IMG/VR virus record: IMGVR_UViG_3300034104_002925
Coordinates: 1-55,529 of that record
Source: a virus
Lineage: Duplodnaviria > Caudoviricetes
Length of the DNA stretch: 55,529 nucleotides
Reading direction: 5' to 3' (one strand)
Position 1 is the stretch's first letter; each line of letters opens with the position of its first letter. The notes under the pieces are model-generated. The model was not told the origin of the DNA. It searched no databases and was given only the letters and a program-made list of their open reading frames with translations. This document shows, one piece after another, positions 28,800 to 55,529 of this stretch. The translations under genes were made by a program, and so were the position numbers.

Positions 28800-30467
28800 A
28801 TGAGTATTCAAAACATTCTAGGTTCTACGGGTACAGCCCACAGAAACCTAATGACAGAAAACAAGGGTACAGTTAAGAAGTGGGAAAAGACAGGACTTCT
28901 TGACGGTATCAAGAACGACTATGAAAAGAACTCGATTGCAGTTCTTCTCGAAAACCAAGCAAAGCAACTTATCGACGAATCATCACGTACAGGTACAGCA
29001 GCAGGTTCAGAAGAATGGGCTGGTGTTGCACTTCCACTTGTTCGTCGTATCTTTTCTGAAATCGCAGCGAAGGATTTCGTTTCGGTTCAACCGATGAACC
29101 TTCCTTCAGGTCTCGTGTTCTTCCTTGACTTCAAGTATGGAACAGCACAACCTGGATTCACACAAGGTGCTGGTAAGGATTCACAAGCTGACTCTGTATT
29201 CGGTGTAACTGGTAAAGAAGCTAAGGGTGTTGACCCATCAGGTGGTCTTTACGGTGCAGGTCGCTTTGGTTATTCAATTAACGAAGCAACTTCTGGTAAC
29301 ATCACAACATCTGTTGGAAACACAACAGTAAACACAACAACATTCGCAACTGCTTCTGTTGGTTACTCTTCAACAAGTGTATTCCAATTTGATACAGAAT
29401 TCCAAGCTGCTTACTCAGCTTCTCTTGTTGGTGGTTACATCTACACAATCACAATTTCATCTGCTTCTTTAGGCAGTGGTACTCATGATGTAGAAGGTAT
29501 CCGTGCATTCAAGGTTTCTGGTTCAAACATTCTTGGTTACTTCCCACAGTATACAACAGCTAACTCAAACGATTCACAAATCACATTCGTGGTTTCTGCA
29601 TCAGCTGCACCAGCTAATAACCTTGTTGTTACATATCAGAAGCAACCAACATCAATTACTCGTAACGACTTCGAAGACGGCGTAGGTTCAGCACTTGCTG
29701 AAACAATCGCAATCCCAGAAATCAATCTTGAGCTTCGCTCAGAGTCTATCGTTGCTAAGACACGCAAGTTGAAGGCAGTTTGGACTCCTGAATTCGCACA
29801 AGACTTGAACGCTTACCACTCAATCGACGCTGAAGCAGAATTGACATCGATGCTTTCTGAGTACATTTCACAAGAAATTGACCTCGAAATCCTCGATATG
29901 CTTATCAAGAACGCTCAGACAACAGAAAGATGGTCAGCTCGTATCGGTCGCACATACGATGGTGCTACAAACACATTCGGTGACTACACATCAGGTCAAG
30001 CTCAAGCAGCAGCGTTCAACCAACAAACTTGGTTCCAAACACTTGGTACTAAGATTCAAAAGGTATCGAACGTAATTCACCAGAAGACACTTCGTGGTGG
30101 TGCTAACTTCCTTGTATGTTCACCACAAGTTGCTACAATCCTTGAATCAATTCCTGGATATGCAGTTGACGGTGAAGGCATGAAGTTCGCGATGGGTGTA
30201 CAGAAGGTTGGTCAGCTTAACGGTCGCATCACAGTTTACAAGAACCCATATATGCTCGAAAATCAAATCCTTGTTGGTTTCCGTGGCACACAGTTCCTCG
30301 AAACAGGTGCGGTATATGCTCCTTACATCCCACTCGTAATGACACCGTTGGTATACGATCCAACGAACTTCACACCACGTAAGGGTGTAATGACTCGTTA
30401 CGCGAAGAAGGTCGTTCGTCCTGAATTCTACGGTCTCATCCAAGTTTCTGAACTCGGTGACATCTAA
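28800..30467 (+). CDS. gp23: major capsid protein (T4 gp23-like)
   Basis: LLENQ, PLVRR, VSVQPMNLPSGLVF, AKTRKLKAVWTPEFAQDLNAYH, YAPYIP, PRKGVMTRY; strongly biased codon usage. Confidence 0.97.
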   Translation: MSIQNILGSTGTAHRNLMTENKGTVKKWEKTGLLDGIKNDYEKNSIAVLLENQAKQLIDESSRTGTAAGSEEWAGVALPLVRRIFSEIAAKDFVSVQPMNLPSGLVFFLDFKYGTAQPGFTQGAGKDSQADSVFGVTGKEAKGVDPSGGLYGAGRFGYSINEATSGNITTSVGNTTVNTTTFATASVGYSSTSVFQFDTEFQAAYSASLVGGYIYTITISSASLGSGTHDVEGIRAFKVSGSNILGYFPQYTTANSNDSQITFVVSASAAPANNLVVTYQKQPTSITRNDFEDGVGSALAETIAIPEINLELRSESIVAKTRKLKAVWTPEFAQDLNAYHSIDAEAELTSMLSEYISQEIDLEILDMLIKNAQTTERWSARIGRTYDGATNTFGDYTSGQAQAAAFNQQTWFQTLGTKIQKVSNVIHQKTLRGGANFLVCSPQVATILESIPGYAVDGEGMKFAMGVQKVGQLNGRITVYKNPYMLENQILVGFRGTQFLETGAVYAPYIPLVMTPLVYDPTNFTPRKGVMTRYAKKVVRPEFYGLIQVSELGDI

Positions 30468-30492
30468 TCTATCTAACAAGATAGAGTAAATT

Positions 30493-30522
30493 AAAAGGGG
30501 AGTGAGAAATCACTCCCTTTTT
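30493..30522 (+). terminator. rho-independent terminator after the MCP
   Basis: GGGAGTGA-GAAA-TCACTCCC stem-loop followed by TTTTT. Confidence 0.92.
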
Positions 30523-30532
30523 GTTTTTAACG

Positions 30533-30540
30533 ATATTTAT
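30533..30540 (+). promoter_or_regulatory. putative late promoter ATATTTAT (island unit 1)
   Basis: Immediately after the MCP terminator. Confidence 0.7.
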
Positions 30541-30575
30541 TAGTATATTATGACGATTAATCACAGGAGTTTTTA

Positions 30576-31520
30576 ATGGCAGCTACATATGGAATGTCCA
30601 CACCTATAATGTCATCGGTGATGCCGAATCCTATGACTGTTCCCGTTATGTCAACAGTGATGCCGAATCCTATGACTACAACAAATACAGTTAGTTCTAT
30701 GGGTGCTCAAGGTTTACCAATGTCAAATGCTTTGCCAATTATTGTAAATGAAAATACACCAAATCTTGCAGAGATACAATCATTTCCAGTTATAGTTAGT
30801 GGTGGTGGGATTCATATGCACCAAGACCCTGTTAGTGGTCAACGATATAGAATGAATGATGAATTTCATTCAAGAATACCACAAATATTGGCTGATAGAC
30901 AATCAGGTGTTAATTCAAATACAGATACAACAGATTCGGTAACACAATATCTAAACGATTTACTTACATATACAAGTAAACCAGAAAATTTAGTTAAAGA
31001 AGTTCCAATGGAAACTCAGTCTGTTGTTACGATAAATTCAAAAGATATATTAGATTCTGCAATAGGAATAACAAATATTCAGAATAATGGTCAAACTATT
31101 ACAGCAACACAACCAAACAGAATTTCTATTTCTACAAATACTAATATTCCTGGATTGGGTAGTCAACAACAGAAAAATGAATTGCAAAAATCTTTAGAAT
31201 CTCAACTAAATTCAAGACCGCAATTATTTAGTAGAGAAACATCAACATCACAAACTACCATATTTACACAAAAAACTATGAGTAGTACAAATATGTTTTC
31301 TCCTATAAGTCAAACACAATTACAATCAATTACAACTACAACAAAAACAAATTACCCTGTCAATAATTTTTCTGTAATTGGAATTCCTGACTCTACTCAA
31401 TATCAACAAACAAATATATTTATACCAACAAATTCATTTGGCGGAATAACTAATAATAATATTTCTATTCAAAGAAATACAAATTCAATCTTACCTACCA
31501 ATAAATTTTACGATACTTAA
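30576..31520 (+). CDS. low-complexity Thr/Ser/Asn/Gln-rich hypothetical protein
   Basis: AGGAG SD; 39-nt tandem duplication encoding MSxVMPNPMT twice. Confidence 0.75.
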   Translation: MAATYGMSTPIMSSVMPNPMTVPVMSTVMPNPMTTTNTVSSMGAQGLPMSNALPIIVNENTPNLAEIQSFPVIVSGGGIHMHQDPVSGQRYRMNDEFHSRIPQILADRQSGVNSNTDTTDSVTQYLNDLLTYTSKPENLVKEVPMETQSVVTINSKDILDSAIGITNIQNNGQTITATQPNRISISTNTNIPGLGSQQQKNELQKSLESQLNSRPQLFSRETSTSQTTIFTQKTMSSTNMFSPISQTQLQSITTTTKTNYPVNNFSVIGIPDSTQYQQTNIFIPTNSFGGITNNNISIQRNTNSILPTNKFYDT

Positions 31521-31527
31521 ATAAGTT

Positions 31528-34500
31528 ATGGCGATAATAAATAGATTTCAGATACGAAGGTATAACGAGATACTTGTAGATGTACCTGCCGGAACAATAC
31601 CGGATGGTGGATTTAGTACGTTTAATTTAGATAATCCAGCTACAACAGGACCATTTGGTACAAGCGATTTTCTCGGTGTAATTAAACAATCTGTATTGAT
31701 TGGTGAAGTAATTAAAGAAGTAATTGATACAAATCCCAGAAGATTAAGACAAGATCCAATACCACCTGGACGATTTAATCAACTTACGCAAGCTGAATTT
31801 GATGCATTTTTACTAAATGGTGATATAGTTATAAATCCACTAACTCGTGGTCAAGCAGAGGTAGTGGGGTGGGTGGAATTAGGGAAATCATATCCTTCAT
31901 TTTATTATAGAGATTGTACTGTATCAGGTGGTAGTGGAAAACAACCGAAATCTGATAACTATTATGAATTGAATGAATTGCAACTATCTCTGTATAGAGT
32001 TTCTGGTCAAGGAAATACTCCATCAGCACTACAGCAAATTGGTGGGTGGAATATAAATGAAACTTATGGTAATTGGGGTGCTCGTGCATATCCAGGTCAA
32101 CAACCATTAATGTTTGCGGACTACATTCAAATCGTAACAAATGGTGGTAGATATGCGGATGACTCATTTACATATTTAACTGAGAGGACTTTATTTCAAA
32201 TACCTCTTTTGATTGCAAATAGAAATGAAAATTTTGATGGAAATAATACAACAATTTTAACTCCATCATTTTCTGATCCAACAAGTACAACCCCTACAAC
32301 AGAGAAAACAGTTTACGGGCGACTACGCCGAACCATCACAGAAGGATTTAGACCATCTTTTAAAACTAATGTTGGTCAGTGTCTTTTAATATCGACCACA
32401 GTAACTCCTCCACCTCCATCCATAACTGATGACGATGTGACAACTGAAACAGAAGAAGATCTTTTATCCGATACATATGATTATTTTGGAGAGGAAGATT
32501 TTTCGGAAGTTTTACCCGAAAATCTAGATGAAGAAGTATCAATACTTACAAATGAAGACCTTGGTATTTTGCCTTGTGAAAGGACTTTTGGATTACCAAT
32601 ACGTGTATATTCGAATGGGGTATTTGTTGCAACTGGTAGTAATTCTTATTTTGGTGCAAATATAAATTCTATGTCTGGGTCGGTTGAAACACTAGAATCT
32701 GGAAAAACTGATGTTGGTCCTGTGGACATAATATTGGAAGATTCACTTATCAGCGATGGTATACGAGACCCAAGATCAATAGCTACTAATAATGAATTTA
32801 TTCCACATGGAACCTATAAGGCACTCTTGAATAAAAATGATTGTGTTATAGAAATTCATGAAGACTTCCGCGATAAAGACGGAGACATACCGGAAGTAGT
32901 GGGTCCTATTGTTACACGATATATAGAAAATATTAGAAAAGAAATGATAAATCGTTTTATAACCAAAAATCCATTAAGATTAATAGGATATGGAACGGAT
33001 GGTTATGAATATTATAGTGATGGTAATTCTTATACTGAATTACATGGAGAATCTATTTTTGGATGTGGCTCTCCTTTTTCTATAGCAGACGTACCAGAAA
33101 TTTTTAATGAAATGTATCCTATTTCGATAAAAGATAGACGTGGTAAAACTGTTTTTGGACATGAAGAAAATGAAAATGTAACATTTTTTAGAGAAACATT
33201 TGAAAGACCAACACAACTATCAATAGAGGCACTAAAAGTATTGGATTGGTTAGGTGGTTTAGATAAAAGGTTTGTTGAAAAACGAGGAACATTATCAGAT
33301 ATGTTTAATGATTTTGTTCTTGGTGTACCCGATTTAGATTTTGCACTTGTTGGCGAAGATTCATCGGAATCAATGCTTAATGATTTAATTGCAACTACAG
33401 TAGGTGGAATTGTTGGAGCAACAGTTGCGTCATTTTTTATATCCGATACGAAAGATTATCTATCACAGATAGAGGGTAGTTCGAATTTAATACTAGCTGG
33501 TGCTTCTGTTGGTTATTCATTACTGCAAGTTATAGAATCAGAAGAAGGTGTTTATAGAAAAGATTGGTATCCAAGTAGTATAAAACCAAAACCAAGATCG
33601 ATAGCTAGATATAGGTCGTATAATTCATTTTGGAAAAGAGAAGGTATAAATAAAGTATATTATGAAACCACACCAAATGTGGATTCATCTATTATAACAA
33701 CAAATACTGATACTTTGATAGATTTTCCTGTTTGGGAGGGAAAAACTCCACGTCAGTTAAGAACTGCACAGTTTAAATTATCATATCCATCAAGGTGGAA
33801 ATCTATGATGCGACCAATTTATGAACAATTGTGGCATGATACAGATGAAATAAAACCACAAAATGTTTCTACTCGTCAATATTTGGGTGAAAACATACTT
33901 GAATTGGAACTCGGTGATTATGAAACCCATAGAAAACAATTTGGAATGTCTAAAAATTTATATGATTATATTGACGATTCTATTTCAATACGAATAGATG
34001 ACGATGTATTTTCTGATGAATCTCAACAAATTGATATATTAACAAGTATAGTCACAAATGTAAATTTTCAACTACGAGGATTTTTTGATGAAAAATTCGC
34101 AAATATAATAGGATTTAGTGTTGATCAACCCGTTACTACAATATCTAATCTGGCAAATAATATTAAAAATTTGAACGATTTGAGTAGCTATATTGTTTTA
34201 TTGGATTCTATTTTACAAACGTATTCTAGTATAATTCAATTTACAAATGATATTGAATCATCTATCAGGCGACTAGAATCTATTGGAAACAGTATTGGTA
34301 AATATATCCAAGAACATGAAAATGGATTTATGGGACCACCAAATGAATCTTTAAAACAAGAATTAATGAGTGCTGGTGAGGAGTTATTAATTAGTATATC
34401 CGAATCAGTTGTAAATTATGTTATTACGTCTGGTTTACAATGGTTGACTAATGAATTAAATAGAACAAATCCACCTAGAAGTTCATTTTCCCCAAGAAGA

Positions 34501-36501
34501 GTTTTTAAAAAAGGTGGTATTTACTTGAAATCAAAATCTGGTAACTACTTTACAAATAAACAACCATGTCCGATTTTATTTTTAGGATTTAATGACGAAG
34601 GCGTAATGTCTTCTTTTTCAGAGTATAATAAACAATTAGATTGCTTATCGACCTTAAATAAAGAAGATAAAATTGATAATCTAAAATATAGTGATAAACG
34701 AGGATTTTTGGCATCTAGTCGTAATCCAATAATGTCATCAATTCAACCAACGTTAGGTGACGTACCATATCGCAACAATTTTCAAGATATAATAAATCCT
34801 GTTAAGCAAGAAACTATACCGGTTATAAACAAGAGAATCCGTCAGTATGGTAGAAATCCATTATTGGACATATTTTATTTAAATCTTATACCCGAATCAT
34901 TTGCAAATAATTGTATTTCAAGATTTGGTTGGCCCGTTGCCCCCTATACACATAGAACATCAACACCAATGCCATATCGATTTCCAAATCAAAATGACTG
35001 GGCCGGAAATCGTCAATTTACAAAAGATTATTCAACTCCATCATATTTTCCACCACATTGGAATGAACCTGGTATAGTAGAAGGTTCTTCTGGGAAGTTT
35101 TACAAAGATTTTTCAATGTTTAAACACGGAGATCCTTTATTCTTCAATAGACAATCAAGTAATATTCTATCAGCAAAAGATAGATGGACAATGAGTATTG
35201 ACACCGTATCTGATGAAAATATTGTAGTGTTGAATGATAAAACACCAATATTGGATATTTATTTTGGTTTACTTGAAATGCACGTTAATGGATTTTCTTG
35301 GGAGGAAATAAATCATTACATAAAAAGAGCAAAGTCTGCAATAAACATTGGAATTGCAGATGTTGAATTTCTAAATGAAAAAGTTCCATCTACACTACTT
35401 TCATCAATTAATTTGATAGAATTAGAGCAATTATGGAAAATAATAGACTCTCGACTAAGTAATACGCAACTATACATATCACCAGACGGTTTTTGGTATA
35501 AAGTAGAACCAATTTCAACGGATTTAGGACAAGGTAGACTTGGTGAGGCGTTACTTGGTGCTGCTCTAAATATTGGTGTAAATGCATCTGGTGAAAAAGA
35601 ATTATCTAATAGATATAGAAGACAATTGAGTTTGGTAAATAATACAAATAAAACTATAACTGTAAAATCAACTAGAATAACATCTGAATACGGTGTATTT
35701 GATATTTTTGGTAATTCACCATCCGATATGTTTTACGTCGGTTATAATATACTAACAAATCCAAGTACAGAAGGTGTATTGGATTTTAATCAAACATTTA
35801 ATCCAATAACACTACAACCATTTACTCCAAATCCAAAAGAACAAAACTTAATTTGGCTACAGCCATTTCCGATTTGGGTATGGTTTATTCCATACGGTGC
35901 TCAACCTGGTTTTGAATATACGGCTGATCTAGAATTGATATGTGATATAGATGGTGAGGAATATGTATTTAGTAAACAACTGATTGCTAGTGTGGAAAAT
36001 AAACCATCGGTTAGAAACTGGTCGGTTGAACTATTATCTGCATCTGAGGTTATTCACTATGGTAGAATTGAAGATATATTTTCTTATGAACAAGAAAAAT
36101 TCTCAATCGGCTATGAAAATTATGCCAGAGAAAATATAATGATAGATAATGTTCAAATACAAAATGAAAGAGTTCTTGATAATAACGGTAATGACATAAC
36201 ATCTCAAATTACCGATTCTCCGAATTTCTTTATATTTGATGGGGTAGACAAAGAATTTGAAAAACAAATTTTTCCAAATCAAAAAATTGGATGGTCTGGG
36301 GGAAATAACCCAGAAGAAATTATAGATGGTCAAAATATAGTAGTGAATAAAGAATCATTGACACTCACGAATACATTTGGAAAAAATAGAATATATGTTG
36401 CAGACGCAATAATAACATATTCTTTGAATCCAAGAATAAATTCAACTTCAAGAATGGTAAAAACAACGATGACTCAATTAAGATTTTCCACAATTAGTTA
36501 A
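31528..36501 (+). CDS. giant hypothetical protein (1657 aa) with Gly-rich hydrophobic segments and C-terminal Ig/ASH-like domains
   Basis: Long ORF; LIATTVGGIVGATVASFFI; LSLVNNTNKTITVKS...FIPYGA...YTADLEL. Confidence 0.85.
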   Translation: MAIINRFQIRRYNEILVDVPAGTIPDGGFSTFNLDNPATTGPFGTSDFLGVIKQSVLIGEVIKEVIDTNPRRLRQDPIPPGRFNQLTQAEFDAFLLNGDIVINPLTRGQAEVVGWVELGKSYPSFYYRDCTVSGGSGKQPKSDNYYELNELQLSLYRVSGQGNTPSALQQIGGWNINETYGNWGARAYPGQQPLMFADYIQIVTNGGRYADDSFTYLTERTLFQIPLLIANRNENFDGNNTTILTPSFSDPTSTTPTTEKTVYGRLRRTITEGFRPSFKTNVGQCLLISTTVTPPPPSITDDDVTTETEEDLLSDTYDYFGEEDFSEVLPENLDEEVSILTNEDLGILPCERTFGLPIRVYSNGVFVATGSNSYFGANINSMSGSVETLESGKTDVGPVDIILEDSLISDGIRDPRSIATNNEFIPHGTYKALLNKNDCVIEIHEDFRDKDGDIPEVVGPIVTRYIENIRKEMINRFITKNPLRLIGYGTDGYEYYSDGNSYTELHGESIFGCGSPFSIADVPEIFNEMYPISIKDRRGKTVFGHEENENVTFFRETFERPTQLSIEALKVLDWLGGLDKRFVEKRGTLSDMFNDFVLGVPDLDFALVGEDSSESMLNDLIATTVGGIVGATVASFFISDTKDYLSQIEGSSNLILAGASVGYSLLQVIESEEGVYRKDWYPSSIKPKPRSIARYRSYNSFWKREGINKVYYETTPNVDSSIITTNTDTLIDFPVWEGKTPRQLRTAQFKLSYPSRWKSMMRPIYEQLWHDTDEIKPQNVSTRQYLGENILELELGDYETHRKQFGMSKNLYDYIDDSISIRIDDDVFSDESQQIDILTSIVTNVNFQLRGFFDEKFANIIGFSVDQPVTTISNLANNIKNLNDLSSYIVLLDSILQTYSSIIQFTNDIESSIRRLESIGNSIGKYIQEHENGFMGPPNESLKQELMSAGEELLISISESVVNYVITSGLQWLTNELNRTNPPRSSFSPRRVFKKGGIYLKSKSGNYFTNKQPCPILFLGFNDEGVMSSFSEYNKQLDCLSTLNKEDKIDNLKYSDKRGFLASSRNPIMSSIQPTLGDVPYRNNFQDIINPVKQETIPVINKRIRQYGRNPLLDIFYLNLIPESFANNCISRFGWPVAPYTHRTSTPMPYRFPNQNDWAGNRQFTKDYSTPSYFPPHWNEPGIVEGSSGKFYKDFSMFKHGDPLFFNRQSSNILSAKDRWTMSIDTVSDENIVVLNDKTPILDIYFGLLEMHVNGFSWEEINHYIKRAKSAINIGIADVEFLNEKVPSTLLSSINLIELEQLWKIIDSRLSNTQLYISPDGFWYKVEPISTDLGQGRLGEALLGAALNIGVNASGEKELSNRYRRQLSLVNNTNKTITVKSTRITSEYGVFDIFGNSPSDMFYVGYNILTNPSTEGVLDFNQTFNPITLQPFTPNPKEQNLIWLQPFPIWVWFIPYGAQPGFEYTADLELICDIDGEEYVFSKQLIASVENKPSVRNWSVELLSASEVIHYGRIEDIFSYEQEKFSIGYENYARENIMIDNVQIQNERVLDNNGNDITSQITDSPNFFIFDGVDKEFEKQIFPNQKIGWSGGNNPEEIIDGQNIVVNKESLTLTNTFGKNRIYVADAIITYSLNPRINSTSRMVKTTMTQLRFSTIS

Positions 36502-36512
36502 AAAAAATTACT

Positions 36513-36520
36513 ATATTTAT
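36513..36520 (+). promoter_or_regulatory. putative late promoter ATATTTAT (island unit 2)
   Basis: Recurrent motif. Confidence 0.7.
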
Positions 36521-36542
36521 AGTATGTGAGATTTATTGTATA

Positions 36543-36785
36543 ATGAAAGGTTATGAAATGACAGAAAAAAGAGTCGATGAGTTATTAAAATATTATGAAG
36601 CATCAAGAAATGTTTTGGATACTTCTCATAAGAATTATCCTGAAAAATTCAATAAAATTGCAACCGAAATTGCACTTGGTTTATTTGACGATACAATTTC
36701 TATCATAAAGTATATGAGCTTAAATCCAAGTCTTATACAAGAAATAAATTCTATAACAAAAGAAACTTCTAACGAGAATCAATAA
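36543..36785 (+). CDS. small helical hypothetical protein
   Basis: Fills the gap between promoter and giant gene; its stop abuts the next ATG; start at 36543 or 36558. Confidence 0.7.
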   Translation: MKGYEMTEKRVDELLKYYEASRNVLDTSHKNYPEKFNKIATEIALGLFDDTISIIKYMSLNPSLIQEINSITKETSNENQ

Positions 36786-41420: not shown

Positions 41421-41436
41421 TTTTACGATTGAATTG

Positions 41437-41444
41437 CTATTTAT
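41437..41444 (+). promoter_or_regulatory. putative late promoter CTATTTAT (island unit 3)
   Basis: Variant of the recurrent motif. Confidence 0.65.
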
Positions 41445-41472
41445 ATGATATATCATTTGTTTGAGGACTTCG

Positions 41473-42063
41473 ATGAAATTATCTAGTAGAAAACAATTAT
41501 TACAAGAAGCCGATGATGTGTTAAAAGACATATCAAAGAAGAAAGTTAATGAAATTGATTGGGATGCATATAAAACTTCTTTACAATATAAAAAAGGTCT
41601 ATCTACAAGAGAAATCAAAGTGGCTAATTGGCAATTAAAAAAAGAGTTAGAAAAGATCGAAGGTAAGTATAGAAATGTTAATGATCCATTATCTAAACAA
41701 AAAGAAATAGACGAATTGATTCGTTTTGCTGAAAAAGTGAAAAAACACGTTTCTGAAGAAAATTGGAAAGAAATACCTATTGATCCAAATGATCAAACAG
41801 AACTACAAAAAATGATTGTAAATACTCCACCATATCCAAAAGGTTTTAAATTTTTTAAAGATTTTGCAGAAACTCTCATTAAAGATCCAAAAACCGGTAT
41901 GTACTGGTCAAGGCATCATGGTATGCCAACACTTCCTCCCGAATGGAATAAAGATAAAGTTGAATATTCAATGCAAAAATATGAAACTGGTCCGTATGAT
42001 TATTCTCGTGGTTGGTTATACAATTTTTTAAAATGGATTTTACGATTTGGGAGTTCTACATGA
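41473..42063 (+). CDS. hypothetical protein with MKLSSRKQLLQE leader (possible capsid cargo)
   Basis: GAGG SD and ATG at 41473. Confidence 0.75.
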   Translation: MKLSSRKQLLQEADDVLKDISKKKVNEIDWDAYKTSLQYKKGLSTREIKVANWQLKKELEKIEGKYRNVNDPLSKQKEIDELIRFAEKVKKHVSEENWKEIPIDPNDQTELQKMIVNTPPYPKGFKFFKDFAETLIKDPKTGMYWSRHHGMPTLPPEWNKDKVEYSMQKYETGPYDYSRGWLYNFLKWILRFGSST

Positions 42064-42233
42064 ATAACAAAGAAATGTTTACAAAACACGAGATTATTGA
42101 TAAAGCAAATGAAGTAAAACTAAAAGAAAAAGAATACAATAACGTTATTAATCAAAAACCAAATGTAAAATCAGACAATATCGAAGATATAGTTGATTGG
42201 TTCAAACAAATATTACTCGTATTGAAAAAGTAA
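42060..42233 (+). CDS. small hypothetical protein (57 aa)
   Basis: ATGA overlap with the upstream stop; GGGAG SD. Confidence 0.65.
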   Translation: MNNKEMFTKHEIIDKANEVKLKEKEYNNVINQKPNVKSDNIEDIVDWFKQILLVLKK

Positions 42234-42247
42234 ATAGGTTATAATTT

Positions 42248-45200: not shown

Positions 45201-48200
45201 TCACTGTATCTCGTGAAACGATTGGTAAAGATGGAGAGCGTGAAATATTGGAAGACGGCGATATTTTACCAACAGAAACTCTCCACAATATTCCAATATT
45301 AACATCATATTACCATCCAATATATTCAGATGGTGGTGCAGACGAAGGTGTTTTGTTTAAAAATGCCGACCCATTGATGGATTTTGAAACGCAACAAAAA
45401 ATAAAAGGTATGGAAATAACTGCCTATACTGGGTGGAACAGTAAGTACGTTGCTCATTGGAATGGGGCGATGGAAATCCCAAAAGATTCCTTATTATCAC
45501 CACCAGTATCTGCCTATTTTTCAGACCAATATCCATCTTCTACAAGTAAACTTAATCAAGTTCATACAAAACCTTTTAAAAAAGTTCATGACTTTTATAT
45601 TTCAAATCAAAATGGTAAAAAATATGATTCATCGAAAGGTCTACTATATGGATTTAGTATCAATAAATTAATAAATACATCGGATATTCAAGCGTGGTTT
45701 CGAGCAATTAAAATGTTAGCTATACATGACTCATACGCAAGATATATTTCAGAAGGAATTACAAAACAAGAGGGAGATAACGGTAGTGTGATTCCAGTAA
45801 AAGCCGAAATAGTAAATACAACAAATAAAAATGAGCCAAAAAATACAATTATATTCATTTCAGGGGAGCCAATTGGTAATAGATATTCTCCTTCAGAAGA
45901 TTTTAAGATGGAAAATATATTACATAGACCATGGGAAGGTGTATTTGAGGGTCAACCCGAATTGAATGCTTTATTGGATGATTATTCATTGGGTACTAAA
46001 AATTGTACACCTCAATATAGATATATGAGACATATAATACAACCACTTGATTTTATGTATTTCTTTCCAAAAACAAAAGAAAATCCAAAAGGTTGGTACT
46101 CAGATGAACAATCATATAAAACTCTAAAATGGATGATCAGAATGATTCCAACAAAATCTTATACTGGGTTTGGGGTGGATACTTTTAATAAAATGGATAA
46201 ATTATCTTTAAGAGCTTTAATTTTGGGCGGATGTGTTTCTAACAATGTTGGTAAAACTCTACTAAAGTCACCAAAGAATTTTGGCATTAAAACTACAAAC
46301 GAATTAAACGTCGTCTTTCAGGCGGCATATAAAGGAGTTTGGGGTGCTGGTAAGTTTGGAAAAGTTATTTGGACTGCTAGTGCAATTAGTACAAAAATAA
46401 AAACAATTGGCGGTGCTTATTTTGAGTCTATAGGTAAGGAGGAACTATCTGTACGTGCTAAAAATCTCGAAGATTTTTTCAAATATAAATTAGATTATCC
46501 TTTGACATTTGGCAAATGGGGACTGAAACTTTTAAACGATATTAGAAACGGTGAATTTGATGAAGGTTCTATTACTTACTTTATAAAAGAAGGTGTAATA
46601 AAATTTTATGGTGACATAGTAAAAGATATTTCAAAACATGCATTTCAAGAAGCTATTGAAGAACTTGTAAGTGAAAGAAAACTTTCCAATTCGTTACAAC
46701 TCGCACGACTTGGTTCATTCGCAAATCTTGGATTAGTAATGCTTTACGAATTAATATCATGGCAAATAGATTTGGCTATAGAAAATTACAAAGGAGAGAA
46801 AAAAATAGAGGATATGTGGGCCCTTTTGAATGAAGCAACAAAAAACAATTGGGTTGAAGGTCCGTACATGGAATCAAAAGGAACAATTAGAATTCCAAAA
46901 GGTTCTGATGGAACTATTGCTGGGAATTATGATCCAAAAGAGTTAGAAAATCAAGGAATAAAAAATATACCAGCACAAACACCGTCTAGTAATGGTTTTT
47001 GGGAGGGACCTGTTCCAGAAATAGATTTGATTGAATTTGTAAATTTCCATAATAATAAATTTTATAAACCAAACGGTCTAGCAAAAACAATCGGTAAAAA
47101 TTTAAAAGAAGGGAGTTGTGAGTGTCAGTTTTTAACAAGTCTGTTTGCAGAAACACCGACGTTTAAAAGTGATTCAAATTATAGGGTAGAAGATAAAGGA
47201 ACTCCTTTTGACAGAAAAAATTGGAAAAAAGGACCTTTCATAAGACAATGGTTAGAACGTGAAAAAATAATAGATGATGCACCAACTTATTCGGATATTC
47301 CAATAACATTTGCAAAAGCGGAACGACCTGATTATAGGGTGAATAATCTTGTGTTTGATAGGCCATCCACTCAAATTAGTGATTTACAACAACCTGGTTG
47401 GGGCGCTGGTAGTCTTGGTCGTTCAAATAATATTAGAGTAAACGGTCAAGGTGGTACTGTTGCAGTTTCTATGGCAGATTGTCCTAGATTCTGGTGGCCA
47501 AATATACTTCATGTTCCAACTAGTGATGATTTGTGCCAATACATGGCAATTGATGGAAAATATCCAAGTAGAATGCCAGAAACATATGGATTGTGTGATG
47601 GTCTTACTAAACAAGATTTACAAAATAAAATTGCACTAGAACGAAACAGAAAATCAAATTATAATTTGGGCGATAATCAGTTAAGGCGATATTCTAGAAG
47701 TGGAACTAAACTTCTAAAGACAGATATACTATATTATCCAGTTGATAGATCATCTAATACAGATATTGGAAACCTACACACCGAATATAATAATGATGCA
47801 GATACTCGAAATAAAGTATTTATGGGGAATACTATAGTTTCATTACAAGGAGTTGATGGTATTGCACCACCACATGAAAGAGAAATAGTCAGATTATTTC
47901 GTATGAAGTATGGTATAGATATTGTTTTTCCAAATAATAACTGTTGTTCTATCGGTGAAGTATTGGAAGAGAACACATCAGCTGGAAGTGCATCAGCAAA
48001 TAATCTACAAAATAGACAAAATGACGCAACAAAATGTGAATATATTATCAAATTAAATGATGAACGTTTTCATAAGATTGTAAAAGAATCTTGTATCAAA
48101 AATAAAACACAGGATAATTCCCAGGAAAATGTTAATAGAGAACTGGCTAATAATACAACAAACAATATTAGAAAGCCAGATATTCGTGTAATAGACTCCG

Positions 48201-48688
48201 CAGTAATTTCTGGTTCAATTCAACTATCGATGGATTCAAGTCTTATTGGTGGTGGTTGGCCTGATAATAGAAGAAAAAAGAAATCAAGACGCAAAAATCC
48301 ATGTGTTCCTGGATGTGTAGATTGTTGTGATGAGGATAGACCAATACCACCTGGCGTTGAGGTTTCAGAAAGACAGATTGCAATTACAAATGTAGATACT
48401 ACATTTGCAAATAGTCCTTCTGCAAACCTGAATCGTTATCAGGCTATAAATAATACAATGGGAATTTTGGAAAATATCGGAAATTCATTTTCTTCAATTA
48501 TAGGTGGAATTCGAGGTTACTTTACAGAAGAAGTTAAAGAACCTAGATCAACTCCATTGGGTCCTGCAGATTCTGAAAAATCAAAAAAATATCGAGACTC
48601 TCTAAAGAAAAAACGTAGTGAGACACAACCACAACAATCAAATGAAACACTCACACAACCAAATACAAATACTACAAATACGGGATAG
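42248..48688 (+). CDS. giant hypothetical protein (2146 aa)
   Basis: Long ORF rich in Trp/Tyr/Pro; hydrophobic segment near 46700; C-terminal basic patch plus CVPGCVDCC. Confidence 0.85.
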   Translation: MAKDIWSVCSFVEKYKSTYNGKDWTDPKHNAWSNFPWEDLSLSQKQYIKTLWNFWNKEFKDPGKFIFFDIINLAPTSGENYGYQTKQILNTRKDFFVNIPIPIDQQTKKRAHEYVPSGVFKQLQSQQKNSNGKKTESEIQGIILNNVKIDENDIEHPAESEFKLSWMRDLVERGVEGVMGPFVASLKSDGSPNKTSDGRVTFKIDQNSLDRFINNRNDYKKAIWEDWLQSQLDFATKDPKGYNNSPYPKVSLKDLQTLSKDGKLSEDGKEQFVMTEVISGQLTSNTKGKEVFQKLALGANGEPIFRDGVMAKVNPNYTISGWIKIPGIYGDKQLPWPFVWRYIGRGGIWQKSVWETSGGKGTFMPSGVSVVEKIDIDAKKQNSKNIPSHVPYIANGTGPSYSFLAFDARSRFWHHRYSTKEIPQRELLFLIRYKYGAAGAVGERFVAAYADPPAFRNTSRVTDEVDNIKQCGGIPLEGVTIKTKSGVSRKYQPYNGNEFTKDTIFDEKKIYRLRSKYICQIHDAVGWNRFGGGDSGHVLPGRTDLGTPLKGEAFEIVDFDKEQGYYSFNGGTSDRQPIQEGVTDVTDDYKLYEYKRDFKLDVQKNHISLWRLINLSNSENPTGLVDPNDRFVTSDSIISTNEIKTTYYNHAKDYLFNYQNAFYPGLYTNKELQFLYELVSYVYYGRTSNYANGVYQFDSIFSFPKRQNKHRWAELGATNSIFPIPNPDLFPKDQKPLIDIGDSDTYIPYLMDYILWAAPTNEQFRKVKFSTIEDTFVKRYKDILINSGKNWIDIRSYPVHLFAKQILDSESSSNPTVPAWVHYKYISRTLNYGENGINAELIDNDVYRVFGGKRDTDDIDQGKLIALPMFVLGGRPDIKNDEKWDSSWGPNPFKIENGVLTVGNMDSVLDNWAKKERLHNGKYVSAMEILFWLRYKRGLSSAPAQRTIRYPINKDYKKINYKWTIDSKNYWPKEAFIYSESINTFTVSRETIGKDGEREILEDGDILPTETLHNIPILTSYYHPIYSDGGADEGVLFKNADPLMDFETQQKIKGMEITAYTGWNSKYVAHWNGAMEIPKDSLLSPPVSAYFSDQYPSSTSKLNQVHTKPFKKVHDFYISNQNGKKYDSSKGLLYGFSINKLINTSDIQAWFRAIKMLAIHDSYARYISEGITKQEGDNGSVIPVKAEIVNTTNKNEPKNTIIFISGEPIGNRYSPSEDFKMENILHRPWEGVFEGQPELNALLDDYSLGTKNCTPQYRYMRHIIQPLDFMYFFPKTKENPKGWYSDEQSYKTLKWMIRMIPTKSYTGFGVDTFNKMDKLSLRALILGGCVSNNVGKTLLKSPKNFGIKTTNELNVVFQAAYKGVWGAGKFGKVIWTASAISTKIKTIGGAYFESIGKEELSVRAKNLEDFFKYKLDYPLTFGKWGLKLLNDIRNGEFDEGSITYFIKEGVIKFYGDIVKDISKHAFQEAIEELVSERKLSNSLQLARLGSFANLGLVMLYELISWQIDLAIENYKGEKKIEDMWALLNEATKNNWVEGPYMESKGTIRIPKGSDGTIAGNYDPKELENQGIKNIPAQTPSSNGFWEGPVPEIDLIEFVNFHNNKFYKPNGLAKTIGKNLKEGSCECQFLTSLFAETPTFKSDSNYRVEDKGTPFDRKNWKKGPFIRQWLEREKIIDDAPTYSDIPITFAKAERPDYRVNNLVFDRPSTQISDLQQPGWGAGSLGRSNNIRVNGQGGTVAVSMADCPRFWWPNILHVPTSDDLCQYMAIDGKYPSRMPETYGLCDGLTKQDLQNKIALERNRKSNYNLGDNQLRRYSRSGTKLLKTDILYYPVDRSSNTDIGNLHTEYNNDADTRNKVFMGNTIVSLQGVDGIAPPHEREIVRLFRMKYGIDIVFPNNNCCSIGEVLEENTSAGSASANNLQNRQNDATKCEYIIKLNDERFHKIVKESCIKNKTQDNSQENVNRELANNTTNNIRKPDIRVIDSAVISGSIQLSMDSSLIGGGWPDNRRKKKSRRKNPCVPGCVDCCDEDRPIPPGVEVSERQIAITNVDTTFANSPSANLNRYQAINNTMGILENIGNSFSSIIGGIRGYFTEEVKEPRSTPLGPADSEKSKKYRDSLKKKRSETQPQQSNETLTQPNTNTTNTG

Positions 48689-48716: not shown

Positions 48717-48742
48717 AAAGGGTGTCTTATGATACCCTTTTT
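48717..48742 (+). terminator. rho-independent terminator closing the island
   Basis: AAAGGGTGTC-TTAT-GATACCCTTT followed by a T-rich tract. Confidence 0.8.
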
Positions 48743-48755
48743 ATTTTGTACAATC

Positions 48756-48763
48756 CTATTTAT
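48756..48763 (+). promoter_or_regulatory. putative late promoter CTATTTAT inside the inverted repeat ATCCTA-TTTA-TAGGAT
   Basis: Ends 5 nt before the ATG at 48769. Confidence 0.6.
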
Positions 48764-48768
48764 AGGAT

Positions 48769-49368: not shown

Positions 49369-49376
49369 GAGTTTTT

Positions 49377-50099: not shown

Positions 50100-50108
50100 G
50101 AGAAATAA

Positions 50109-51260
50109 ATGGTAGAAATTCCAATTTGGCCGGGTTCAAGCTCCTTTACAACTGGAAGCACACCGTTCGGATTTTTTGATGCCGAGGCATCGTTTCGAAC
50201 TGATGCCGATAATGTTGCTGATTGGTGTGCAAAACGTCTTGGTTATCCACTTGTGGATATAGAACTTCAAGCTGGTAATTTCTATGCTTGTTTTGAAGAA
50301 GCAATATCGGAGTATTCTAACCATGTAAATCAATTTAATATTCAACAGAATATGTTGAGTATCATGGGAACATCGGTTGACAACAATTTAACACACCAAA
50401 ATGTTTCAACCAACATGGGCGGTTTAATTCAGTTGGCTACGGAATATGGCTCGGAAACATTTACAAACGGTAATGTAAAGTTTCATTCTGCATCTATTGA
50501 CATAACAATGAATAGACAACGATATGACCTTGATTCGATAATTCGAAATGTGTATACCCCAACAAGTTCAATCGAAATCAAAAGAGTTCATCATTATGCA
50601 CCACCGGCATCTATTCGATTCTATGACCCATACTTGGGTAATCAGGCGATGTTAGATACATTCGGATTTGGTGCATACTCAACAGGTGTTTCATTCATGT
50701 TGATGCCGATGTATGCCGACTTACTTCGTGTTCAAGCTATCGAATTTAATGATGTGATGAGAAAATCATCTTATTCATTTGAACTTATTGATAATGAACT
50801 TCGTATATTCCCTATCCCAGTTAGAGATTTCAAATTGTGGATTGAATATATCGTTAAAGAAGAACGTTCAAATCCTTTAAAATACCAACCGATTTCTGGT
50901 TCTGGTGTTTCTGGTCTTGTATCGGATATGTCTAATGCACCATATAACAGAATGCAATATGGTAAGATAAACTCGGTAGGTCGTCAATGGATTTACCGTT
51001 ATACACTTGCTCTTGTAAAGGAAAACTTGGGATATATTCGTGGTAAGTATGGAAGTATTCCAATTCCAAATGGAGAAACCACACTTAATGCCGCCGACTT
51101 ATTATCAGCAGCTGGTACAGAAAAACAATCACTTGTGGAAGAATTAAGAACAATGTTGGATACAATGACTCGTTCTAAACTTCTTGAAGCAAAACGTGCA
51201 GAAGTAGAATCATTGAACGTTTCTTTGAATGCAACACCACTCAAAATCTACATAGGATAA
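50109..51260 (+). CDS. gp13: neck protein (T4 gp13-like)
   Basis: KRLGYPLVDIEL, WIYRYTLALVKENLGYIRGKY..IPIPNGETTLNA; synteny. Confidence 0.8.
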   Translation: MVEIPIWPGSSSFTTGSTPFGFFDAEASFRTDADNVADWCAKRLGYPLVDIELQAGNFYACFEEAISEYSNHVNQFNIQQNMLSIMGTSVDNNLTHQNVSTNMGGLIQLATEYGSETFTNGNVKFHSASIDITMNRQRYDLDSIIRNVYTPTSSIEIKRVHHYAPPASIRFYDPYLGNQAMLDTFGFGAYSTGVSFMLMPMYADLLRVQAIEFNDVMRKSSYSFELIDNELRIFPIPVRDFKLWIEYIVKEERSNPLKYQPISGSGVSGLVSDMSNAPYNRMQYGKINSVGRQWIYRYTLALVKENLGYIRGKYGSIPIPNGETTLNAADLLSAAGTEKQSLVEELRTMLDTMTRSKLLEAKRAEVESLNVSLNATPLKIYIG

Positions 51261-51264
51261 ACCG

Positions 51265-52742: not shown

Positions 52743-52766
52743 TATGATTTCTAGAAAAAAATCACT

Positions 52767-52774
52767 ATATTTAT
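52767..52774 (+). promoter_or_regulatory. putative late promoter ATATTTAT
   Basis: Recurrent motif. Confidence 0.7.
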
Positions 52775-52805
52775 AGATATACAGTTTTATTAATGTGAGG
52801 TTTTT

Positions 52806-53090
52806 ATGTCAGAACAAATTGAAAAAGAATTTGAACAGCCAGATATTGAGTCTGTCAAAGAATTACAATCAAATTACGCCACAACAACGGCACAAATCGG
52901 TCAGATAGAAGTCGAACTTCATCTGTTAAAGAAACGATTAGAAGAAGTTGAAGGTATCCGAGAAGAATTGTTTAAAAATTACGAGTCAATTCAACTTAGA
53001 GAAAAGGAACTCGTTCAAAACCTAAATGAAAAATACGGAGATGGTGTCCTTGATTTAGATTCTGGAAGATTTATTTCATCAGGTCAATAA
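52806..53090 (+). CDS. small coiled-coil hypothetical protein
   Basis: GAGG SD; LNEKYGDGVLDLDSGRF C-terminus. Confidence 0.8.
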   Translation: MSEQIEKEFEQPDIESVKELQSNYATTTAQIGQIEVELHLLKKRLEEVEGIREELFKNYESIQLREKELVQNLNEKYGDGVLDLDSGRFISSGQ

Positions 53091-53107
53091 TTTGGATTTT
53101 TTTTTCT

Positions 53108-53115
53108 ATATTTAT
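53108..53115 (+). promoter_or_regulatory. putative late promoter ATATTTAT
   Basis: Upstream of the tail sheath gene. Confidence 0.7.
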
Positions 53116-53152
53116 ATCAGAGACGATTATATCATTTTTTTGGAGATAAATA

Positions 53153-55529
53153 GTGGCTAATGAAAGAATTGTAAGTCCTGGCGTGTTTACAGTCGAAAAG
53201 GATCTTTCGTTCTTACCACAAGGAATCGGAGCAATCGGTGCTGCCCTTATAGGACCAACCCTTAAAGGACCAGCATTTGTTCCAACTTTGGTAGAAGGAT
53301 ACAACGACTTTGTAACAAAATTTGGTGGAGGTTATGAACAATCATACCTTCCTTATACCGCTAAGAGCTATCTAACTAATGCCGGTAGTGCAACTATCGT
53401 GCGAGTTCTTGGTTCGGGTGGTTATTCACTCAAGCACCCTCTTGCTATCGTTGCTACTGGTAGCTATGGTAAGAGATTAATTTCTGTACTTCACCCAACA
53501 TTTGTTGTAACAAATGCATCTGCTGATTCATTGTTTGCTAGTTCGTTACTTGCATCAAATAACAGTGGTTCATTTGTTCTTACTGTTTCTGGTGGATTCA
53601 CAACAGACACATCCGCATTTACAGGAAATGCCGTATCAGAAAACGGAACTCCATTCAGTGCATCTATCAATCCTGAAAGCACCTCGTTTATTGGTGACCT
53701 TTATGGATATGGTGCTTATGGAACACACGCTGTTTACAACTATGTTTCATTTGCAAAAGCCGCTTCTGCTTCATTGGCAACAGACGGTGCAACAACAATT
53801 ATTATTGAAACAGGTTCTGCGTCAACACCACCTTGGGATTTCACAACAGATTATCTTGAAGCATTCACACCATATATAACTTCACAAAAAGTTGGTGCAG
53901 CTTCAACAAATCTCTTCCGTTTTGCAACACTTTCACACGGTATTCATGCAAACTATGAAGTTAAGATTGGTATCGCAAACATTCGTGCTGCTGGTACAAT
54001 CGCTGGTTCTGAGTATGGTGACTTCGATGTTGTTGTACGATTTGTAGACCAATCAAAGGTTGTTGGTACTCCATTTACATATGAAGATGAAGATCTTCGT
54101 CCAAACATCGTTGAAACATTCAAGTGTAATCTTGACCCTAACTCACCACGTTATATCGCTCGTGTTATTGGTGACAGATATGTAACAATCACAGACGAAG
54201 GTAAAGTTGTTGTAAACGGCGATTACTCTAACAAGTCAAAGTACATTCGTGTTGAAGTAACAGACGCAGTTGCAAACGGAGCAATTTCACAAAATCTTGT
54301 TCCTTTTGGATTCCGTGCCCTCACATCAACAGTTCCTTCAGCATTCACACAACCACTTTCTGCTTCGTTTGTAACAAGTCAAACAGCCGGTGGTGCTTAT
54401 AATCGTCGTGTATATTTCGGATTTAATTATGATTTTGCTAACACAGACAACTTCAATTATCTCCGTCCACTTCCAATAACTGCAAATCAGACAACTGGAA
54501 GCAATGCAGATTTCTACTTGAGCAATTATACTCAGAATGTTGGTGCTAACTATCCATCATCAACATCTCCTTATACTGGTTCCATCAACCTTACAACAAA
54601 CACATCGCTTGATTCACGTAAGTTCATGGTTCCATTCCAAGGCGGATTTGATGGACACAAGCCAAATCTTCAGAAGAAAGTTGGTACATACATCGTTGCT
54701 GGTAATACTCAAGGATTTGACATCTCTTCAACATCTGCTGCTGGTTACACATCATACAAGAAGGCACTTGATGCTGTATCAAACGCTGATGAATTTGACA
54801 TCAACATGATTGTAACACCGGGTGTTGTTCACGCATTACACTCAGCAGTTACAACATATGCAAAGGATGTTTGTGAAGATCGTGGTGACGCTTTCTATGT
54901 AATGGATTCGGTTGGTTTGGATGACAACATCGCTACAGCAGTATCTACTGTTGAAGGTTTAGACACAAACTATGCCGCTACTTACTATCCTTGGGTCAAG
55001 ATTATTGACTTCGAACGTAACAAGCCAGTTTGGGTTCCACCTTCTGTTGTTCTTCCGGGTGTTATTGCATTCAATGACCGTGTTTCTGCTGAATGGTTCG
55101 CACCAGCTGGTTTGAATCGCGGTGGTCTTACAGAAGTTGTTGAAGTAAAGACACGTCTAACACAAACAGAACGTGATGACTTATATGATGCTAGAATCAA
55201 CCCAATCGCAGTATTCCCATCAACAGGAGTATGTGTATGGGGTCAGAAGACACTTCAAGGTAAGCCGTCTGCTCTTGACCGTATCAACGTTCGTCGTCTC
55301 TTGATTGCAGCTAAGAAGTTCATCGCATCTGCTACACGTTACCTTGTGTTCGAACAAAACACAACACAAACACGTACACGATTCCTGAACATCGTTACTC
55401 CTTATCTTGAGTCAATCCAACAACGTCAAGGTCTTTATGCCTTCCGCGTTATCATGGATGAGTCGAACAACACACCTGACATCATCGACCGTAACATTCT
55501 TTATGGTCAGTTGTACCTACAACCTGCTA
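53153..55529 (+). CDS. gp18: contractile tail sheath protein (T4 gp18-like), 3'-truncated; absent from the ORF track
   Basis: GGAG SD plus GTG start: MANERIVSPGVFTVEKDLS...IGPTLKGP; later YYPWV, VPPS, WFAPAGLNRG, INPI, VWGQKTL, DRINVRRL, FEQN. Confidence 0.95.
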   Translation, partial: MANERIVSPGVFTVEKDLSFLPQGIGAIGAALIGPTLKGPAFVPTLVEGYNDFVTKFGGGYEQSYLPYTAKSYLTNAGSATIVRVLGSGGYSLKHPLAIVATGSYGKRLISVLHPTFVVTNASADSLFASSLLASNNSGSFVLTVSGGFTTDTSAFTGNAVSENGTPFSASINPESTSFIGDLYGYGAYGTHAVYNYVSFAKAASASLATDGATTIIIETGSASTPPWDFTTDYLEAFTPYITSQKVGAASTNLFRFATLSHGIHANYEVKIGIANIRAAGTIAGSEYGDFDVVVRFVDQSKVVGTPFTYEDEDLRPNIVETFKCNLDPNSPRYIARVIGDRYVTITDEGKVVVNGDYSNKSKYIRVEVTDAVANGAISQNLVPFGFRALTSTVPSAFTQPLSASFVTSQTAGGAYNRRVYFGFNYDFANTDNFNYLRPLPITANQTTGSNADFYLSNYTQNVGANYPSSTSPYTGSINLTTNTSLDSRKFMVPFQGGFDGHKPNLQKKVGTYIVAGNTQGFDISSTSAAGYTSYKKALDAVSNADEFDINMIVTPGVVHALHSAVTTYAKDVCEDRGDAFYVMDSVGLDDNIATAVSTVEGLDTNYAATYYPWVKIIDFERNKPVWVPPSVVLPGVIAFNDRVSAEWFAPAGLNRGGLTEVVEVKTRLTQTERDDLYDARINPIAVFPSTGVCVWGQKTLQGKPSALDRINVRRLLIAAKKFIASATRYLVFEQNTTQTRTRFLNIVTPYLESIQQRQGLYAFRVIMDESNNTPDIIDRNILYGQLYLQPA

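Follow-up and report, generated by a model that had tools for sequence, protein, structure and literature searches.

Virion proteins of a clade of T4-like, lake-type phages share a short linear motif, [ST]-[GA]-S, which is real and specific to the virion proteins of that clade, strictly keeps serine at its third position and is mostly followed by a hydrophobic residue. The motif was encountered in the IMG/VR record IMGVR_UViG_3300034104_002925, the entire 55,529 nucleotides (nt) of which constitute the stretch analyzed here (the window; estimated completeness 33%), with all genes on the + strand. The clade spans from Rhodothermus phage RM378 via Flavobacterium phage immuto and Microcystis phage Mel-JY01 to the window contig. 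Judged by identity of the major capsid protein (MCP), Mel-JY01 (70%) is the closest isolate, followed by immuto (57%) and RM378 (37%), and the gene order of the window is syntenic with that of Mel-JY01. Across the clade, outer virion proteins carry the motif about two to five times above expectation. Its excess, direction, serine specificity, restriction to virion proteins, range within the clade and conservation were computed directly, as was the presence of glycosyltransferase genes, including one that belongs to the core of the clade. With regard to its meaning, the motif may mark serine residues that are O-modified in the cytoplasm by a phage-encoded enzyme, a reading that we place not far short of an even chance, and the modification might be a glycan, which is a more tentative proposal.

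A serine-strict motif specific to virion proteins

In the Mel-JY01 genome, the virion arc, the limits of which (160-190 kb plus 0-47.5 kb) were drawn by position once the locations of virion genes were known, comprises 58 of the 221 open reading frames (ORFs) and holds 148 copies of the motif against 71.5 expected; 11 of these ORFs are individually enriched (p<=0.01). Outside the arc, 163 ORFs contain 26 copies against 27.2 expected (0.96x), and none of them reaches p<=0.01. Eight of the 11 enriched ORFs encode baseplate or fibre-region proteins without counterpart in the window, while terminase, portal, protease, scaffold and tail tube of Mel-JY01 are all devoid of copies. For these whole-genome tests, ORF sets consisted of longest-ORF calls of at least 70 amino acids (aa) with less than 20% overlap, and the annotation of the records was not used. 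All five clade genomes tested, namely Mel-JY01, immuto, RM378 and the relatives G001 and G004, are enriched 1.6-2.2-fold, with 7-11 enriched ORFs each. Outside the clade, the whole proteome of T4 stands at 0.77x with no enriched ORF; no enrichment was found in the T4 homologues of MCP, tail sheath and neck, nor in MCP, sheath and gp13, the proteins tested, of HTVC008M and P-RSM6.

The same signal emerges when the motif is not specified beforehand. When all 8000 tripeptides are scanned, SGS takes first place in Mel-JY01, G004 and immuto and second place in RM378; it lies outside the top 12 in T4 and G001. (Here, as in the Markov test below, ORFs more than half made up by three residues were excluded.) Moreover, diverse MCPs (88 of 150 representatives, namely those of at least 500 aa and without X) contain 350 copies against 186 expected, which makes the motif third of 12,544 comparably shaped ones, and 311 of 355 motif copies fall within the insertion region. 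MCPs from IMG/VR (79 of 80 loci used) show a 1.98-fold excess in 19 sequences of at least 72% identity and a 1.93-fold excess in 60 sequences of 54-63% identity. Combined over proteins outside the window and four further genomes, the replication amounts to z ~12.

Fibre and LamG proteins are encoded in the window itself, together with an RCC1 protein of 21 repeats and a three-gene cassette of glycosyltransferase, methyltransferase and glycosyltransferase. Besides PhoH and three giant ORFs, it also holds genes for terminase, portal, a gp23-like MCP, a gp13-like neck protein and a tail sheath, the last truncated at the window end (Table 1). The initial annotation had drawn attention to pentapeptides around [ST]-[GAS]-S in three of these proteins, and every one of them was found at its place: ATASV, YSASL, SSASL, VSGSN and VSASA in the MCP (nt 29349-29603), ATGSY, NSGSF, FSASI, ASASL, ETGSA, LSASF, TTGSN and YTGSI in the sheath, and GSSSF, TTGST, HSASI and ISGSG in the neck, to which GSAST in the sheath and PTSSI in the neck have to be added. 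The last MCP site ends at residue 268 of 555, and no sheath site lies beyond residue 477. Against 40-residue local shuffles, five copies against 2.6 expected were observed in the MCP (p 0.11), five against 1.1 in the neck (p 0.004) and nine against 4.0 in the sheath (p 0.017), and the three proteins pooled yield 19 against 7.65 (p 0.0002). With shuffles confined to the motif-bearing regions, the figures are 5 against 1.7 for MCP residues 160-290 (p 0.02) and 9 against 2.5 for sheath residues 100-480 (p 0.00075).

Enrichment over shuffled sequences holds for the pooled proteins but, within the window alone, loses significance once the look-elsewhere effect is considered: out of those 12,544 motifs, the noted one attains z 4.36 in the three proteins, where the best motif of a typical null attains 4.2, which corresponds to a family-wise p of 0.39. 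Taken together, the genes of the interval singled out by the initial annotation contain 31 copies against 21.2 (z 2.2), and all non-repeat proteins of the window 50 against 42 (z 1.3). The excess is modest, and the case from the window alone is weak, because motif and proteins were chosen after the sequence had been viewed and because of the family-wise p. Chance combined with ascertainment, by which a loose motif would have been picked post hoc in segments rich in Ser, Thr, Gly and Ala, is in keeping with these window figures, including those of the MCP taken alone. For the signal as a whole it is a very improbable explanation, and at the level of the clade chance and cherry-picking are excluded because the motif replicates in other genomes and leads the unbiased tripeptide scans.

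The initial annotation had also contrasted these proteins with terminase, portal, protease, PhoH and the conserved C-terminus of the sheath, and the count is indeed zero in each of them, the protease-like protein being ORF 24806-25489, which is syntenic with the Mel-JY01 protease. These zeros constitute weak evidence since the shuffle expectations are small, namely 0.84 for terminase, 1.36 for portal, 0.31 for ORF 24806-25489 and 0.21 for PhoH.

As to its shape, the motif needs to be narrowed from the form noted initially. Across the 19 window sites, Ala (9 against 2.6) and Gly (8 against 2.5) are enriched at the middle position but Ser (2 against 2.5) is not, and the true motif is [ST]-[GA]-S, a directional pattern that requires Ser as its third residue. 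In Mel-JY01, with two low-complexity ORFs (starts 635 and 9444) omitted, T[GA]S occurs 49 times against 14.8 expected (3.3x) and S[GA]S 55 times against 20.9 (2.6x), as opposed to 18 against 14.9 (1.2x) for S[GA]T, 12 against 10.7 (1.1x) for T[GA]T and 1.1-1.3x for the remaining residue orders. In about 120 homologues for each of the 19 window sites, position 3 is occupied by Ser at a frequency of 0.89 and by Thr at 0.02, while Ser and Thr interchange at position 1 and Gly, Ala and Ser at position 2. A hydrophobic residue follows directly in 12 of the 19 sites (background 0.33, p 0.008). The signal also exceeds a first-order Markov expectation (17 against 6.7) and hence extends beyond dipeptides. 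Three other origins were rejected: a general period-2 alternation of Ser/Thr in beta-strands, since [ST] followed by S at distance 2 does not exceed 1.13x for the window and 1.06x for the 88 MCPs; a word at the nucleotide level, since the codons of the last Ser vary at the 19 sites (TCT, TCA, AGC, TCC, TCG); and a shared domain, since hhalign yields probabilities below 1% among the MCP insertion, the variable part of the sheath and the neck. The last result also bears out that the excess resides in unrelated proteins.

The many copies which had been reported for fibres and LamG proteins require a distinction between domains. Non-collagen domains of the fibres are enriched: the N-terminal domain of fibre 4447-6495 (residues 1-165) contains 8 copies against 2.5 (p 0.0012), among which hydrophobic-TGS-hydrophobic occurs five times against 0.05, its C-terminal domain 4 against 1.4, and residues 48-260 of the second fibre (2-784) 10 against 3.2 (p 0.0007). 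Collagen-like tracts, on the other hand, yield the motif trivially (27 against 39 in fibre 4447-6495, 8 against 10.3 in fibre 2-784), and no enrichment is seen in the LamG proteins, with 4 against 2.4, 1 against 2.6 and 6 against 3.6. One of the latter, encoded at 784-1494, also gives a Pfam row for the clostridial neurotoxin N-terminal receptor-binding domain (23.3 bits, cut-off 23.8), which overlaps a far stronger Laminin_G_3 match and thus indicates a resemblance of fold class only.

Further proteins of the clade were conspicuous for high or low copy numbers. In immuto, a hypothetical protein of 373 aa (L002:28105-29226) carries 17 copies against 3.0 expected, mostly of the form hydrophobic-TGS/SGS-hydrophobic and resembling the N-terminus of the window fibre 4447-6495. 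The window encodes a head-module protein of 109 aa at 23936-24265 with three copies against 1.1, and an ORF of the same length in G004 (54593-54922) has three against 0.4. Conversely, the motif is depleted in the Ser/Thr/Gly-rich RCC1-repeat protein (6876-10100, 1074 aa; 2 copies against about 14 expected), the repeats of which carry RSSPVQIG. The giant ORFs (31528-48688) comprise 1657, 1544 and 2146 aa with no Pfam family above noise; two giant ORFs of Mel-JY01 are sited elsewhere, downstream of the tail tube, and are likewise not enriched.

Placement, conservation and turnover of the sites

An AlphaFold2 model of the MCP (mean predicted local distance difference test score (pLDDT) 78.5 overall, 80-92 over residues 161-280), which is closest to T4 gp23 (Z 22), places the five sites, in sequence order, at the end of strand 181-186, at the start of helix 206-211, in a helical turn after strand 214-220, in the hairpin turn that joins strands 238-240 and 244-247, and where strand 260-267 ends. 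The initial annotation had anticipated sites at turns, and the model agrees with it in so far as all five appear at strand ends, turns or a helix start. The corresponding model of the sheath, built with 120 close homologues, has a mean pLDDT of 32.8 and is too poor for secondary structure at the sheath sites.

Within close relatives the sites are firmly retained. In sets of about 120 homologues per protein, with identities of at least 77-80%, 108-120 of the 121 MCP sequences retain each of the five sites. Of the nine sheath sites, seven recur in at least 119 of 120 sequences, and four of the five neck sites recur in at least 114 of 120 sequences. Conservation of the motif Ser/Thr exceeds that of the remaining Ser/Thr of their region in MCP (Mann-Whitney p 0.011) and sheath (p 0.0037), with p 0.19 for the neck, and four motif columns are retained in four to seven of eight paralogues at 37% identity. 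Compared with Mel-JY01, eight of nine sheath sites and four of five neck sites stand in common columns, as does one of five in the MCP, although both MCPs carry five sites. In the deeper clade, turnover of sheath sites is nearly total, to the extent that the nine sites of the window and the ten of immuto have no exact column in common, yet their number stays at 5-11, RM378 with two being the exception.

These observations bear on an alternative that is somewhat unlikely but has to be taken seriously, according to which the motif is a structural idiom, i.e. a strand-ending or turn element with its small residue directed to the core and its hydroxyls capping the backbone, maintained by purifying selection on the fold and free of any modification, which the fibrous repeats and the outer domains of this lineage, rich in beta structure, would employ heavily. 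The modeled positions in the MCP, the preference for a hydrophobic next residue, the restriction of the middle residue to Gly, Ala and Ser, the columns shared by distant paralogues and the above-average conservation of motif Ser/Thr in MCP and sheath all agree with it, and so does a six-residue TG-x repeat in the fibre. Ordinary proteins, however, display no such preference, as seen in the non-virion ORFs of Mel-JY01 and in the T4 proteome, nor do the homologues of MCP, sheath and neck in T4, HTVC008M and P-RSM6. Thr, although suited to strands, is excluded from position 3, and the density of sites is maintained while their positions turn over. A lysozyme-domain protein of Mel-JY01 is likewise at variance with a structural idiom: it carries four TGS ahead of its endolysin/lysozyme match, which covers residues 147-336. 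This protein is encoded at 161423-162454 (L175:1423-2454), and the four TGS start at residues 56, 63, 70 and 75, within about 22 residues (56-77). Recognition of the motif by a phage enzyme would explain all of these observations with one cause, the virion restriction, the exclusion of Thr and the density despite turnover included, and would match the presence of a core glycosyltransferase.

Candidate modifying enzymes and the weight of the proposal

All nine clade relatives' records contain GT1 or GT2 matches above cut-off, and no relative without glycosyltransferases was found among them. More specifically, a PF00534-type glycosyltransferase of the GT-B fold with about 480 aa is among only 17 Mel-JY01 ORFs that have BLASTP matches in all four other clade genomes, the core otherwise consisting mostly of terminase, portal, protease, MCP, neck, sheath and a family of baseplate-region paralogues. 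This core GT-B was found in eight of nine clade records tested, including G002, G003 and G005, and is absent from T4, the sole outgroup searched; searches of G007 (78% complete) and of the window (33% complete) did not reveal it. Its best solved match, PDB 3oy2 (chlorovirus glycosyltransferase B736L; E 2.8e-7, 32.7 bits), is weak and covers residues 224-361 only. For two GT-B proteins encoded side by side in G004, a single-sequence PDB search gave no GtfA/GtfB-like chain, which is not an exclusion. In Mel-JY01 (83441-84932) and G002 (62678-64209) the core GT-B is divided between two ORFs, and the matches in G002 and G003 (131520-132944) each contain one in-frame TGA; sequencing error, frameshift or recoding could underlie this.

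The glycosyltransferase-like genes of the window, which had been proposed as readers of the sequon, are indeed present, though the TPR/GT9-like one is dispensable for the motif. Its product of 343 aa is a candidate protein glycosyltransferase by virtue of Atlas feature neighbours, which carry Glyco_transf_9 on 10-55% of members in addition to TPR families; Pfam returns only TPR_2 (15.3 bits, cut-off 27), with no GT9 match at E<=0.1. The gene was detected in G007 and G008, which served as positive controls of the search, and is absent from the records of 12 relatives: G001-G004, which are near-complete (90-100%), G005, G006, G010 and G011, which are less so, as well as Mel-JY01, immuto, RM378 and LR756508. 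The Atlas clusters of the 262-aa GT-A-like protein carry Glycos_transf_2 on 30-49% of their members, and tblastn gave no match to it among 50,697 phage records. Single-sequence PDB searches with both proteins returned nothing useful.

Modification of Ser by a phage-encoded enzyme is the likeliest single cause of the motif, and O-glycosylation by a GT-B glycosyltransferase is the leading chemistry for the proposed modification. In this scheme [ST]-[GA]-S, a short, linear and directional motif enriched beyond composition on the candidate targets, would be read at beta-strand ends or tight turns by the phage enzyme, and the position-3 Ser would be modified in the cytoplasm. Capsid, sheath, neck, baseplate and fibres would bear such sites on their outer domains, which would give rise to a modified particle surface. 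The core GT-B pair might serve as reader, while accessory cassettes such as the one of the window (TPR/GT9-like, methyltransferase and GT-A) might elaborate the glycan. Here we infer that the enzymes act on proteins, that the motif is what they read and that the product is a glycan. That such Ser-specific, sequon-directed cytoplasmic O-glycosylation by the core GT-B pair extends over this whole clade of myophages, from the thermophilic RM378 to the abundant freshwater phages, is conceivable but seems to us somewhat less likely than not.

A related but improbable alternative holds that the motif is recognized for another purpose, be it a non-glycan O-linked modification (phosphoryl-linked groups from a cytidine diphosphate (CDP) donor, or phosphorylation) or the docking of a phage chaperone or a decoration protein. 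A virion-specific, directional and Ser-specific signal fits such recognition as well as it fits glycosylation, and candidate enzymes are encoded in the window: a 761-aa protein with a cytidylyltransferase-like N-terminus (13159-15444; phrog_395 2.3e-7) in the same module, and an Alt-like ADP-ribosyltransferase match (phrog_802 1.9e-9) in a 359-aa protein of the head module (26362-27441). The former match is, however, weak in Pfam (14.4 bits, cut-off 21), and no enzyme of this kind emerged as conserved throughout the clade; among the 17 core ORFs, which are partly annotated, the GT-B alone is marked as a possible modifying enzyme. In the annotation of Mel-JY01, a 'cytidylyltransferase like protein' stands upstream of the terminase, at the place corresponding to the 761-aa gene, matched by position only.

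Several observations weigh against sequon-directed glycosylation. Apart from the family-wise p of the window, neither the LamG proteins nor the three giant ORFs nor the Ser/Thr-rich ORF 30576-31520 are enriched. The modeled placement of the five MCP sites would equally fit a structural role, and deep conservation together with the hydrophobic flanks of many sites is reminiscent of structural turn residues. In the N-terminal domain of fibre 4447-6495, TGS belongs to a six-residue structural repeat (TG-x-hydrophobic-x-V, with T at residues 53, 59, 65 and 71), the third residue of which may also be T or D. Counts are inflated by paralogy and orthology, as is apparent from the neck and sheath sites common to Mel-JY01. 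The TPR/GT9-like protein had to be rejected as a necessary partner of the motif since G001, G004, Mel-JY01, immuto and RM378 are enriched without the gene. Furthermore, the link between core GT-B and motif comes from one clade and thus effectively from one evolutionary event, and the enzyme could act on DNA or polysaccharide instead.

If the motif is a modification site, the surface chemistry of these phages would be readable straight from sequence, and this in a clade which is abundant in lake metagenomes (8000 MCP relatives scored, 596 IMG/VR stretches confirmed). The surface so formed would affect adsorption, aggregation, grazing, decay and host recognition of the particle. Should the modification be clade-wide, sequon-directed glycosylation, no protein glycosylation system of a phage would have been defined by a sequon before, nor would a linear sequon have been known for a cytoplasmic O-glycosyltransferase of bacterial type that acts on many unrelated folds. 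As a modification site, the motif could be employed as a short acceptor tag for glyco-engineering. If it is structural only, it would still be an unusual, lineage-specific sequence idiom and a caution against taking a composition-controlled motif excess as a sequon. Three cultured relatives, Mel-JY01, immuto and RM378, carry the signal, which opens the question to direct testing.

Table 1. Window genes related to the motif; positions and site coordinates are in nt of the window.
Feature	Position	Strand	Match or domains	Motif sites
Second fibre gene, 3' part, truncated at window start	2..784	+	Collagen-like tract residues 1-47, then globular part	Ten in globular part
Fibre protein	4447..6495	+	N-terminal domain residues 1-165, collagen-like Gly-X-Y tract 166-413, then C-terminal domain	
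Glycosyltransferase-like protein, 343 aa	10194..11225	+	Short TPR-like N-terminus and GT9-like body; Atlas feature clusters Glyco_transf_9 plus TPR	
S-adenosylmethionine-dependent methyltransferase, between both glycosyltransferase-like genes	11218..11847	+	Methyltransf_23 6e-14	
GT-A (GT2)-like protein, 262 aa	11832..12620	+	Glycos_transf_2 20.6 bits, under cut-off 23.3	
MCP, gp23-like, 555 aa	28800..30467	+	phrog_138 4e-73	Five in insertion domain: residues 184, 206, 221, 240, 266 (nt 29349-29357, 29415-29423, 29460-29468, 29517-29525, 29595-29603)
Neck / head-tail adaptor, gp13-like, 383 aa	50109..51260	+	phrog_211 2.5e-13	Five: residues 10, 15, 127, 152, 263 (nt 50136-50144, 50151-50159, 50487-50495, 50562-50570, 50895-50903)
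Tail sheath, truncated at window end; full length 814 aa (P0121)	53153..55528	+	phrog_23 2.8e-65	Nine: residues 102-477 (nt 53456-54583); conserved C-terminal part without any

Comparison with known glycosylation systems

A full-text search of the literature, with supplements unopened, retrieved no description of such a motif on phage virion proteins and nothing on Mel-JY01. Among the systems described, the flagellin O-glycosyltransferases FlmG and Maf are cytoplasmic, and according to PMC7591256 and PMC11339370 flagellin has no known consensus sequon; FlmG combines a TPR domain that binds the substrate with a GT-B domain. The resemblance lies in Ser/Thr O-glycosylation in the cytoplasm on surface domains of a polymerizing structural protein, demonstrated for flagellins and proposed here, and the architecture of TPR plus glycosyltransferase is reminiscent of the window 343-aa protein (TPR_2 under cut-off). 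For flagellins no linear sequon is known, whereas a short ordered motif is the whole signal in the window clade, a difference which likewise has to be held against the proposal.

In mycobacteriophages, virion glycans have been demonstrated at the C-termini of capsid and tail-tube subunits (Freeman et al. 2023, Cell Host Microbe, as summarised in PMC12619734). Both cases concern tailed phages with glycosyltransferases of their own, represented here by the GT2-like and GT9-like window genes, the GT1/GT2 genes of all nine relatives and the core GT-B, with virion glycosylation shown in the former and proposed in the latter. In contrast to the mycobacteriophage sites, the candidate sites of the window clade are internal, belong to insertion domains of MCP, sheath, neck and fibres, follow a short ordered motif and are known from sequence alone; those of the MCP occupy residues 184-268 of 555, and the tail tube of Mel-JY01 has none. 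Chloroviruses glycosylate their capsid by virus-encoded enzymes. They share with the window clade a virus-encoded GT-B of the Glycos_transf_1 type, but their host is a eukaryote and the match is the weak, partial one over residues 224-361.

Finally, the autotransporter heptosyltransferases (TibC/TibA and Aah/AIDA-I) are cytoplasmic enzymes that modify Ser but not Thr, acting on many Ser with small neighbours on a beta-rich surface protein, and the iron finger of TibC consists of four conserved Cys, Cys-339/342/358/370 (PMC4358343). As a precedent for enzymes that accept Ser alone, they speak in favour of the proposal. The window 343-aa protein differs from them in lacking a four-Cys cluster (its only Cys are residues 99, 127, 142, 265 and 272) and in having a TPR-like N-terminus in place of their beta-barrel; moreover, the GT9-like gene is absent from motif-bearing relatives, and the core enzyme of the clade is of the PF00534 type rather than GT9. 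What the two systems may have in common is a Ser-strict acceptor with a small neighbour, as at position 3 of the window motif, along with the GT9-like character that the Atlas neighbours suggest for the 343-aa protein.

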